From an uncultured Prevotella sp. (GTDB taxonomy: Bacteria > Bacteroidota > Bacteroidia > Bacteroidales > Bacteroidaceae), in contig CALUFN010000003.1 of assembly GCA_944319945.1 (NCBI GenBank), positions 4,101-68,100 on the forward strand: a stretch of DNA of 64,000 nt, written 5' to 3'. Under the pieces are notes generated by a model, which was not told where the DNA came from, did no database searches, and saw only the letters and a program-made list of their open reading frames with translations. Positions within the stretch are counted from its first letter, which is position 1. Every line of letters begins with the position of its first letter. Positions 40,960 through 41,686 of the stretch are shown here, piece after piece. The translations under genes were made by a program, and so were the position numbers.

Positions 40960-40990
40960 AGAGTGCTTGTCTAACCTCTTTAAAAACAAG
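40960..40990 (+). ncRNA. Candidate preQ1-I riboswitch aptamer
   Basis: AGAG-U-GCUUGU-CUAAC-CUCU-UUAAAAACAAG: P1 AGAG/CUCU, P2 CUUG/CAAG pseudoknot, conserved U, C and A-tract; ends 3 nt before the yhhQ ATG. Confidence 0.6.
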
Positions 40991-40993
40991 AAA

Positions 40994-41686
40994 ATGGAAC
41001 AACGTAAACAACAGGTAAGCGTGCTGTTCTTGCTTTTCAGTACGCTGTTCTGCGTTTGCCTGATAACGGCTAACGTATTGGAAACAAAGCAAATCTCGTT
41101 CGGAGCGGTGAACATAACGGGCGGACTGCTCGTGTTCCCCGTGTCTTACATCATCAACGACTGCGTGTGCGAGGTGTGGGGATTCCGCAAGGCGCGCCTG
41201 CTGATATGGCTCGGCTTTGCGATGAACCTTATCTTCGTGGCCTTCGGCGCGCTGGCCGACGCCATTCCCGGTGCGCCTTACTGGCACAACGACGAGGGCT
41301 TCCACGCCGTGTTCGGTCTCGCCCCGCGCATAGCCGCAGCCTCGTTCGTGGCGTTTCTGGTAGGCTCTTTCATCAACGCCTACGTGATGAGCCGCATGAA
41401 GATATCGTCAGGCGGCAGACATTTTTCCGTTCGCGCCGTGGTGAGCACGCTCTTCGGCGAGACTGCCGACTCGCTCGTGTTCTTCCCGTTGGCGCTTTCG
41501 GGCGTGGTGCCGGCCGGCGAAATGGTGTCGCTCATCATATCGCAGGTGGTGCTTAAGACTTTATACGAGATTGTCGTCCTGCCCGTGACGGTGCGCGTGG
41601 TGCGCAAGACCAAGCAGCACGAGGGCGAGGACGTGTATGATGAAGGAATAAGTTACAGTATTTGGAAAGTGTTTAAATTGTCATGA
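40994..41686 (+). CDS. yhhQ: Queuosine precursor transporter (YhhQ/VUT family)
   Basis: [30 protein letters not shown] and [10 protein letters not shown]. Confidence 0.92.

Follow-up and report, generated by a model that had tools for sequence, protein, structure and literature searches.

A class I preQ1 riboswitch appears to control yhhQ and queF in a stretch of 64,000 nucleotides from an uncultured Prevotella sp. (contig CALUFN010000003.1), called the window below. The element, AGAGUGCUUGUCUAACCUCUUUAAAAACAAG, occupies positions 40960-40990. It is 31 nucleotides (nt) long, and its 3' end lies 3 nt before the AUG of yhhQ. The favored reading, to which a probability of about 0.8 is given, is that of a compact preQ1-sensing aptamer of the class I 'AC' type (preQ1-I-like), working at the level of translation as an OFF switch of the yhhQ-queF operon. 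The element is very probably a shortened form of the preQ1 riboswitch. PreQ1 as the ligand is suggested by comparison with characterized aptamers, and the OFF direction and the translational level of control are presumed.

The element was compared across 80 yhhQ loci from different GTDB species, picked by protein similarity (73-97% identity) and blind to the leader. An alignment of 56 distinct leaders, called A1, was used to build a covariance model, R1. In addition, metagenome contigs were scanned with the pattern GAGTGCTTG-N3-5-CCTC-N5-10-AAACAAG, which fixed the helix P2 by design; this motif-first scan gave at least 120 loci. The ortholog leaders and these metagenome loci together provide 68 unique cores. 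Counts given below over unique cores, or over all copies, include the metagenome loci.

An earlier note on this DNA had proposed the motif from its letters, and direct re-reading of the sequence at 40960-40996, AGAGUGCUUGUCUAACCUCUUUAAAAACAAGAAAAUG, gave identical letters, with the AUG at 40994-40996. The parts of the element are as follows.

40960-40963, forward strand: 5' strand of helix P1 (AGAG), pairing with 40976-40979.
40964-40965, forward strand: loop L1 (UG); the U is invariant in 56 of 56 leaders and the G at least 90% conserved.
40966-40969, forward strand: 5' strand of helix P2 (CUUG), complementary to 40987-40990.
40970-40974, forward strand: loop L2 (UCUAA), 2 to 5 nt long among relatives, its last base always A.
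40975, forward strand: predicted specificity C, directly 5' of the P1 3' strand and invariant in all leaders.
40976-40979, forward strand: 3' strand of P1 (CUCU), covarying with 40960-40963.
40980-40986, forward strand: A-rich loop L3 (UUAAAAA), its last five A invariant in A1.
40987-40990, forward strand: 3' strand of P2 (CAAG), at -7 to -4 from the AUG; invariant.
40991-40996, forward strand: AAA spacer, with an A at -3, and the yhhQ AUG; the expression platform, as judged from the sequence.

The motif is found just 5' of the start codon in all 79 orthologous yhhQ leaders with readable upstream DNA (80 species genomes). A chance match is ruled out: the 64 kb window holds a single match to a 30-nt core pattern searched with up to 3 mismatches, where shuffles give an expectation of 0.01, and R1 scores 65.8 bits at the site against 17.2 bits at the runner-up place in the window. 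No second copy was found with the covariance model in the window or in 100 of the metagenome loci (0.79 Mb), and viral contigs scanned for the motif gave no match. The runner-up itself lies at 17675-17697 on the reverse strand (UUAAAAACAACAAUAUG). It is an A-rich start region to which only the tail of the motif model aligns; by itself, this tail is a common feature of Bacteroidales initiation regions.

The strongest structural evidence concerns P1. In A1 the outer pair is formed in all 56 leaders, as A-U in 39, G-C in 16 and C-G in 1. The third pair is A-U in 55 leaders and G-C in 1, while both G-C pairs of the helix are invariant. RNAalifold on its own predicts the same helix. With covariation at two of its four pairs and this independent prediction, the P1 that had been proposed from the single sequence is real. 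Because 41 of the 56 leaders lack pairing at a possible fifth position, the core of P1 is taken as 4 base pairs (bp). In the wider set of 68 unique cores, the outer pair is A-U in 26, G-C in 15, C-G in 14, and U.G and G.U in 1 each. The remaining cores consist of 3 true mismatches and 8 apparent 'C-C' cases, all of them long forms that regain a G-C pair through a bulged C. The helix reaches 5-6 bp in some orthologs, such as locus L023 with 5 bp (UGGAG/CUCCA).

Some copies carry a further structure next to P1. A GC-rich hairpin, CCCGCC-(4-5 nt)-GGCGGG, adjoins the 5' side of the helix in L022, L023, L025, L026, L030, L033 and L038, and a single U next to it extends P1 to 5 bp. This hairpin could stack on P1 or shield the 5' end.

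The loops place conserved bases where class I aptamers contact their ligand. In class I structures, a strictly conserved C before the P1 3' strand recognizes preQ1 by Watson-Crick pairing, the L1 uridine after P1 reads its N9-H, the adenine that ends the A-rich L3 reads N3/N2, and the G of the G-C closing pair contacts the aminomethyl group (PMC11625349). The corresponding bases C40975, U40964, A40986 (the last A of L3) and G40963-C40976 are all invariant. The closing pair keeps its G on the 5' strand in 56 of 56 leaders, and this G40963 is predicted, by analogy, to form the G-C floor of the ligand pocket. The invariance of C40975, which had been named as the base that pairs with the ligand, extends from the leaders to the 68 unique cores, in every one of which L2 ends with 'A' followed by this C. 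L1 is UG in 64 of the 68. L3 is 7 nt long in most copies and 8-12 nt in others, and is A-rich throughout. P1, P2 and C40975 are all kept in the orthologous leaders, as the earlier note had expected of a functional aptamer.

The genes next to the element point in the same direction. Two are relevant in the window.

40994-41686, forward strand: yhhQ (COG1738/Vut_1), 230 amino acids; Pfam PF02592, E 2.5e-49.
41683-42150, forward strand: queF, 155 amino acids; Pfam QueF PF14489, E 9.9e-34.

Homologs of the window YhhQ carry the name queuosine precursor transporter in a protein look-up. On this basis yhhQ is predicted to encode a queuosine-precursor (preQ0/preQ1) transporter and to be the gene under control of the element. 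The queF product is the preQ0 reductase, which makes preQ1. The idea that a transporter and the enzyme that makes preQ1 lie downstream thus agrees with the Pfam matches for both proteins. Since the two open reading frames (ORFs) overlap by 4 nt, queF is probably co-translated with yhhQ.

The same context recurs far beyond the window. Among the matches listed (at least 120 loci), yhhQ homologs with 48-97% identity lie directly downstream of nearly all copies, and the yhhQ(-queF) context is seen in about 190 loci. Where there is room for it, queF directly follows yhhQ in 116 of 174 loci. At one metagenome locus (L114) the motif precedes queF alone. At another (L191) it stands before queD (PTPS, E 4.4e-32), and a radical-SAM gene occupies the queE position after it. 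The sole exceptions among the matches listed, L110 and L148, have a mismatched P1 and no start codon, and were rejected as chance matches. The motif-linked genes form a pure queuosine-precursor regulon; the typical preQ1-riboswitch regulon is made up of the same gene types (PMC5372724). Muribaculaceae (among loci L201-L207) have a gene for a HAD-family hydrolase after yhhQ in place of queF.

The element occurs in Prevotellaceae, Parabacteroides and Muribaculaceae. Exact protein look-ups assigned copies to Segatella copri, Parabacteroides distasonis, P. johnsonii, Muribaculum intestinale and metagenome-assembled genomes (MAGs) of Bacteroidaceae, and found one QueD close to that of Xylanibacter oryzae. 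A second protein search added Amulumruptor, Duncaniella and Paramuribaculum. The window YhhQ shares 90% identity with the Marseilla massiliensis protein and as much as 97% with proteins of Prevotella MAGs, and the DNA stretch itself is contained in chicken-gut metagenome runs.

Several independent comparisons tie the element to known class I aptamers. The B. subtilis and T. tengcongensis sequences used here are given verbatim in PMC10639078. Global alignment of the window copy with the B. subtilis aptamer has 26 identical positions, a value equaled by 3 of 5000 shuffles, and the alignment scores of L023 and L040 with the T. tengcongensis aptamer exceed those of all 5000 shuffles. The likeness in loop lengths to B. 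subtilis queC, and in the tail to T. tengcongensis, had been noted earlier; it matches the sequences, and the alignment scores beat nearly all shuffles. A search with Rfam 15 (4227 families) gives RF00522 as the single relevant match. The ortholog L023 aligns with this model over its full length (P1, loop and tail), with 20.9 bits and an E value of 0.0076. On the leader, preQ1-II (RF01054) and preQ1-III (RF02680) gave no match at E values up to 10.

Class I aptamers are divided into subtypes, and the closest one, as far as sequence can tell, is type II (RF00522), represented by B. subtilis queC and T. tengcongensis. Members of this type are likewise about 31-34 nt long and have the H-type pseudoknot architecture proposed here. 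The two share the U after P1, the 'AC' before the P1 3' strand, which is a hallmark of type II and type III aptamers (PMC11625349), the A-rich L3 and the queuosine-precursor gene context. The purine-rich 5' strand of P1 is AGAG in the window and AGAGG in B. subtilis, and the CAAG tail resembles that of T. tengcongensis (ACAAAACAAGG). Unlike type II, the Bacteroidales element has a P1 of 4 bp, one pair shorter, in most copies including that of the window, an L1 of UG, and a P2 of four contiguous Watson-Crick pairs (CUUG/CAAG). Its scores with RF00522 are 9.6-20.9 bits, against a gathering score of 39. Some Bacteroidales copies also have a hairpin inserted in L3, and the element would occlude the A-rich start region of a ribosome that is blind to the Shine-Dalgarno (SD) sequence, rather than an SD sequence.

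Type III aptamers are found in E. coli and other Pseudomonadota, upstream of yhhQ (PMC11625349). They share the yhhQ target and the 'AC' with the Bacteroidales element. They also act on translation and form a Watson-Crick P2 with the tail, both of which are proposed for the Bacteroidales element. However, the UU after P1, the pyrimidine-rich stem-loop and the buried AAGG Shine-Dalgarno sequence of type III are absent from it. Type I aptamers, as in Carnobacterium antarcticum, H. influenzae and N. gonorrhoeae, belong to the same class and have the fold proposed here; Bacteroidota are one of several phyla for which this subtype is recorded (PMC11625349). They have 'UC', UU after P1, a C interrupting the A-tract and two stacked ligands, whereas the Bacteroidales element always has 'AC' and carries UG in L1. 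Because of these differences from type I, one ligand is expected.

A number of results weigh against assignment to the preQ1 aptamers. At the gathering threshold, the Rfam search of the window and of 17 representative loci returned no RF00522. A search with 47 nt of the window copy gave RF00522 only 9.6 bits, with the tail alone aligned. The window P1, at 4 bp, is one pair short of the 5 bp in the family consensus. Covariation in P2 was sought in the 56 distinct Prevotellaceae leaders, and the helix proved invariant except in L051/L056, an ambiguous case in which AUUG faces CAAC, or CAAU 3 nt further on. Folding-energy z-scores, for leader and aptamer alike, are about 0 relative to shuffles. 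Metatranscriptome contigs from chicken gut (90-95% relatives) break at 40960/61 and show no transcript boundary, and contigs from P. distasonis culture RNA sequencing read straight through the leader with no 5' end. Finally, the motif is absent from one Bacteroidales yhhQ leader (L201/L202, labeled Barnesiella/Bacteroides) and so is not universal. That leader has a different GC hairpin.

Standard annotation misses the element because it scores below the 39-bit cut-off, an outcome that had been foreseen for standard models; even a relaxed Rfam search on the 191-nt leader returned no preQ1 match. Unremarkable folding energies are to be expected for a tiny ligand-dependent pseudoknot and are uninformative. 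P2 is the helix chosen by the nested minimum-free-energy fold of the aptamer taken alone, at -1.9 kcal/mol, which is no better than shuffles.

An element of the same fold might have a different main ligand, such as preQ0, another 7-deazapurine or a queuine-related base. The controlled genes import preQ0/preQ1 and consume preQ0, the sequence has diverged to below the Rfam cut-off, L1 is UG, and P1 has one pair fewer than in characterized aptamers. Nevertheless, this alternative is unlikely. All class I positions for preQ1 recognition are kept and invariant, among them the floor G, which binds the aminomethyl group through its O6. Some binding of preQ0 also occurs in known class I aptamers, so that the regulon needs no distinct specificity.

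The invariance of P2 bears on a second alternative. Aligning the leaders for covariation, as the earlier note had suggested, succeeded for P1; P2 is complementary yet invariant and gives no covariation. The same invariance was found when covariation was sought in Muribaculaceae leaders from the second protein search, which was independent of the motif. Because P2 is complementary but does not vary, the pseudoknot helix has to be inferred rather than read from covariation. U40970 and A40986 could add a fifth pair to it. A ligand-independent element at the start of yhhQ, whether it is bound by a protein or small RNA or forms a fixed structure that tunes translation, would fit a P2 and loops that are invariant rather than covarying. 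It would also fit the unremarkable folding energy and an A-rich tail like those of ordinary Bacteroidales start regions, for instance at window 17675-17697. It would leave unexplained the one-for-one match of the invariant positions with class I preQ1 contacts, RF00522 as the sole Rfam match, and the presence of the motif before three queuosine-precursor gene sets. Such an element is improbable, slightly more so than a preQ1-like fold with another ligand.

Insertions in L3 provide good evidence that selection acts on RNA structure. Eleven loci (L034, L035, L037, L046, L050, L054, L057, L061, L067, L073 and L080) carry an insertion of 25-60 nt at the 5' end of L3, with CCUCC(G/A)U on one side and UAAACAAAACAAG on the other. 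The insertions are unrelated in sequence, each folds into a hairpin, and the motif is intact on both flanks. Selection at the RNA level is suggested because unrelated hairpins share this one point of insertion. In most of the eleven loci, the 5' strand of P1 is GCGAG, with a probable bulged C.

The position of the aptamer relative to the start codon suggests how a preQ1 switch would act. The spacer between the CAAG tail and the start codon is 2-5 nt long in 191 of 197 copies. Because this spacing is fixed across about 190 copies, the initiation site is the likely target. Between the aptamer and the AUG no terminator is predicted and there is no room for one. A terminator-based attenuator was therefore rejected. 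Messenger RNAs (mRNAs) of Bacteroidia lack Shine-Dalgarno sequences; secondary structure and adenines upstream of the start, A-3 among them, tune their initiation (PMC6847099). The anti-SD sequence of the Bacteroidia ribosome is sequestered (PMC7797042). The host is a member of the Prevotellaceae, so the view that no SD sequence is used here agrees with ribosomes that ignore it (PMC6847099, PMC7797042).

In the proposed mechanism, a Bacteroidetes-type promoter some 35 nt upstream would drive transcription through the aptamer. As long as no ligand is bound, the 31 nt would be essentially unstructured, leaving the A-rich, SD-less initiation region open to the 30S subunit. Once preQ1 has accumulated, it would pair with C40975 and stack on G40963-C40976, with U40964 and A40986 reading its minor-groove-like edge. 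Binding would lock an H-type pseudoknot consisting of P1 (40960-63/40976-79), P2 (40966-69/40987-90) and the A-tract in the minor groove of P1. The folded knot, ending 3 nt before the AUG, would bury about -14 to -4 and sterically block loading of the 30S subunit. Import of preQ0/preQ1 and reduction of preQ0 would then be turned off, a case of end-product feedback.

Least probable of all is a preQ1 aptamer that acts mainly through transcription or mRNA stability: the B. subtilis class I member is transcriptional (PMC11625349) and translational repression often destabilizes mRNA secondarily, but here only 3 nt separate the aptamer from the AUG, neither a terminator stem nor a U-tract lies between it and the coding region, and the 2-5 nt spacing to the start codon is fixed.

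The leader upstream of the aptamer contains two further features.

40914-40921, forward strand: predicted -7 box, TAATTTTG, matching TAnnTTTG.
40924-40945, forward strand: 5'-leader hairpin, UGCGG-(12 nt A-rich loop)-CCGCA, found in the minimum-free-energy and centroid fold of 40924-41025.

TAnnTTTG is the Bacteroidetes-type -7 promoter consensus. From this box, transcription is predicted to begin around 40926, some 34 nt before the aptamer, giving a 5' untranslated region of about 68 nt that would include the whole aptamer. A TAnnTTTG box lies within 200 nt 5' of P1 in 66 of the 80 leaders, 9-175 nt before P1, and no such box is found inside or after the aptamer in the 80 leaders. At the queD locus, L191, the -7 box is 12 nt upstream. 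The contig break at 40960/61 was considered as a transcription start and rejected, since conservation between species begins there, which makes the break an assembly effect.

The leader hairpin is accessory. Its sequence is not conserved, and relatives have other hairpins or repeat arrays in its place. In the closest relatives, arrays of the 8-nt repeat UAAGGUUA, together with complementary AACC-containing repeats, lie between the promoter box and the aptamer. Such arrays occur at 2354-2391 and 2433-2463 of L001 and also in L002, L008 and L011, with a remnant at window 40935-40958. The two kinds of repeat fold as a long imperfect hairpin. In L063, L068, L071, L072 and L079, repeats of the ATTCAAC type are found instead.

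Annotation of the start codon affects whether the element is seen at all. Many YhhQ homologs in the databases are annotated with 239 amino acids instead of 230, starting from a UUG inside the P2 5' strand (40967-40969). Neither UUG 40967 nor UUG 40919 can be the start of a coding N-terminal extension: orthologs differ in the leader by insertions and deletions of 1, 2 and 4 nt in A1, and because these are not triplets the leader is non-coding. The N-termini of homologs align to MEQRKQ from the AUG at 40994. When yhhQ is called from the UUG in P2, the element is concealed in a mis-called coding sequence, and this is often the case.

The operon is flanked by an AraC-type regulator gene upstream, ending at 40831, and by a patatin/Omp85 gene downstream. 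A terminator-like hairpin at 42204-42229 on the forward strand starts 54 nt past the queF stop, inside the 5' end of the patatin/Omp85 ORF (42168-44612). The yhhQ-queF transcript may end there; alternatively, the start of the patatin gene may be mis-placed. Elsewhere in the window, a tRNA gene with anticodon CAU lies at 52569-52641 on the reverse strand (Rfam tRNA, 58.1 bits); it is the sole match in the window at gathering level.

McCown et al. 2014 is reportedly the source for the phylum distribution of class I subtypes, and some or all of the Bacteroidales sequences may already be in its alignments. Bacteroidota are placed among the phyla with class I preQ1 riboswitches by a 2024 review that cites this work (PMC11625349). 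A full-text literature search for preQ1 riboswitches in Prevotella, Parabacteroides, Muribaculaceae and Bacteroides found none described beyond the phylum list of that review. Control of yhhQ by preQ1 riboswitches is already known (PMC5372724), and work based on RegPrecise gives only two RNA regulogs in Bacteroidaceae. The element, as read from its sequence, has a known fold and pocket and differs by a minimal 4-bp P1, an optional hairpin in L3 and an SD-less platform.

A more speculative suggestion is that the Bacteroidales copies are a fourth class I subtype, marked by the 4-bp P1, the 4-bp Watson-Crick P2, the UG in L1 and the optional L3 hairpin, and shaped by ribosomes that ignore the SD sequence. 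This is possible, though doubtful. Regulation in such a subtype may work by steric and structural occlusion of a Kozak-like A-rich initiation region alone, and the subtype might weigh preQ0 against preQ1 differently.

The element is widespread in important gut taxa, yet unsurprising to riboswitch specialists. The Rfam gathering threshold passes over the whole clade, which leaves a gap in annotation. If confirmed, this would be an unannotated riboswitch in abundant gut and rumen bacteria, including Prevotella, Segatella copri, Parabacteroides distasonis, P. johnsonii and Muribaculaceae. With a knot of about 31 nt adjoining the AUG, it would be among the smallest natural models for riboswitch control of translation on the SD-independent ribosomes of Bacteroidia. 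It would govern how queuosine precursors, micronutrients shared in the microbiome and with the host, are taken up and converted.

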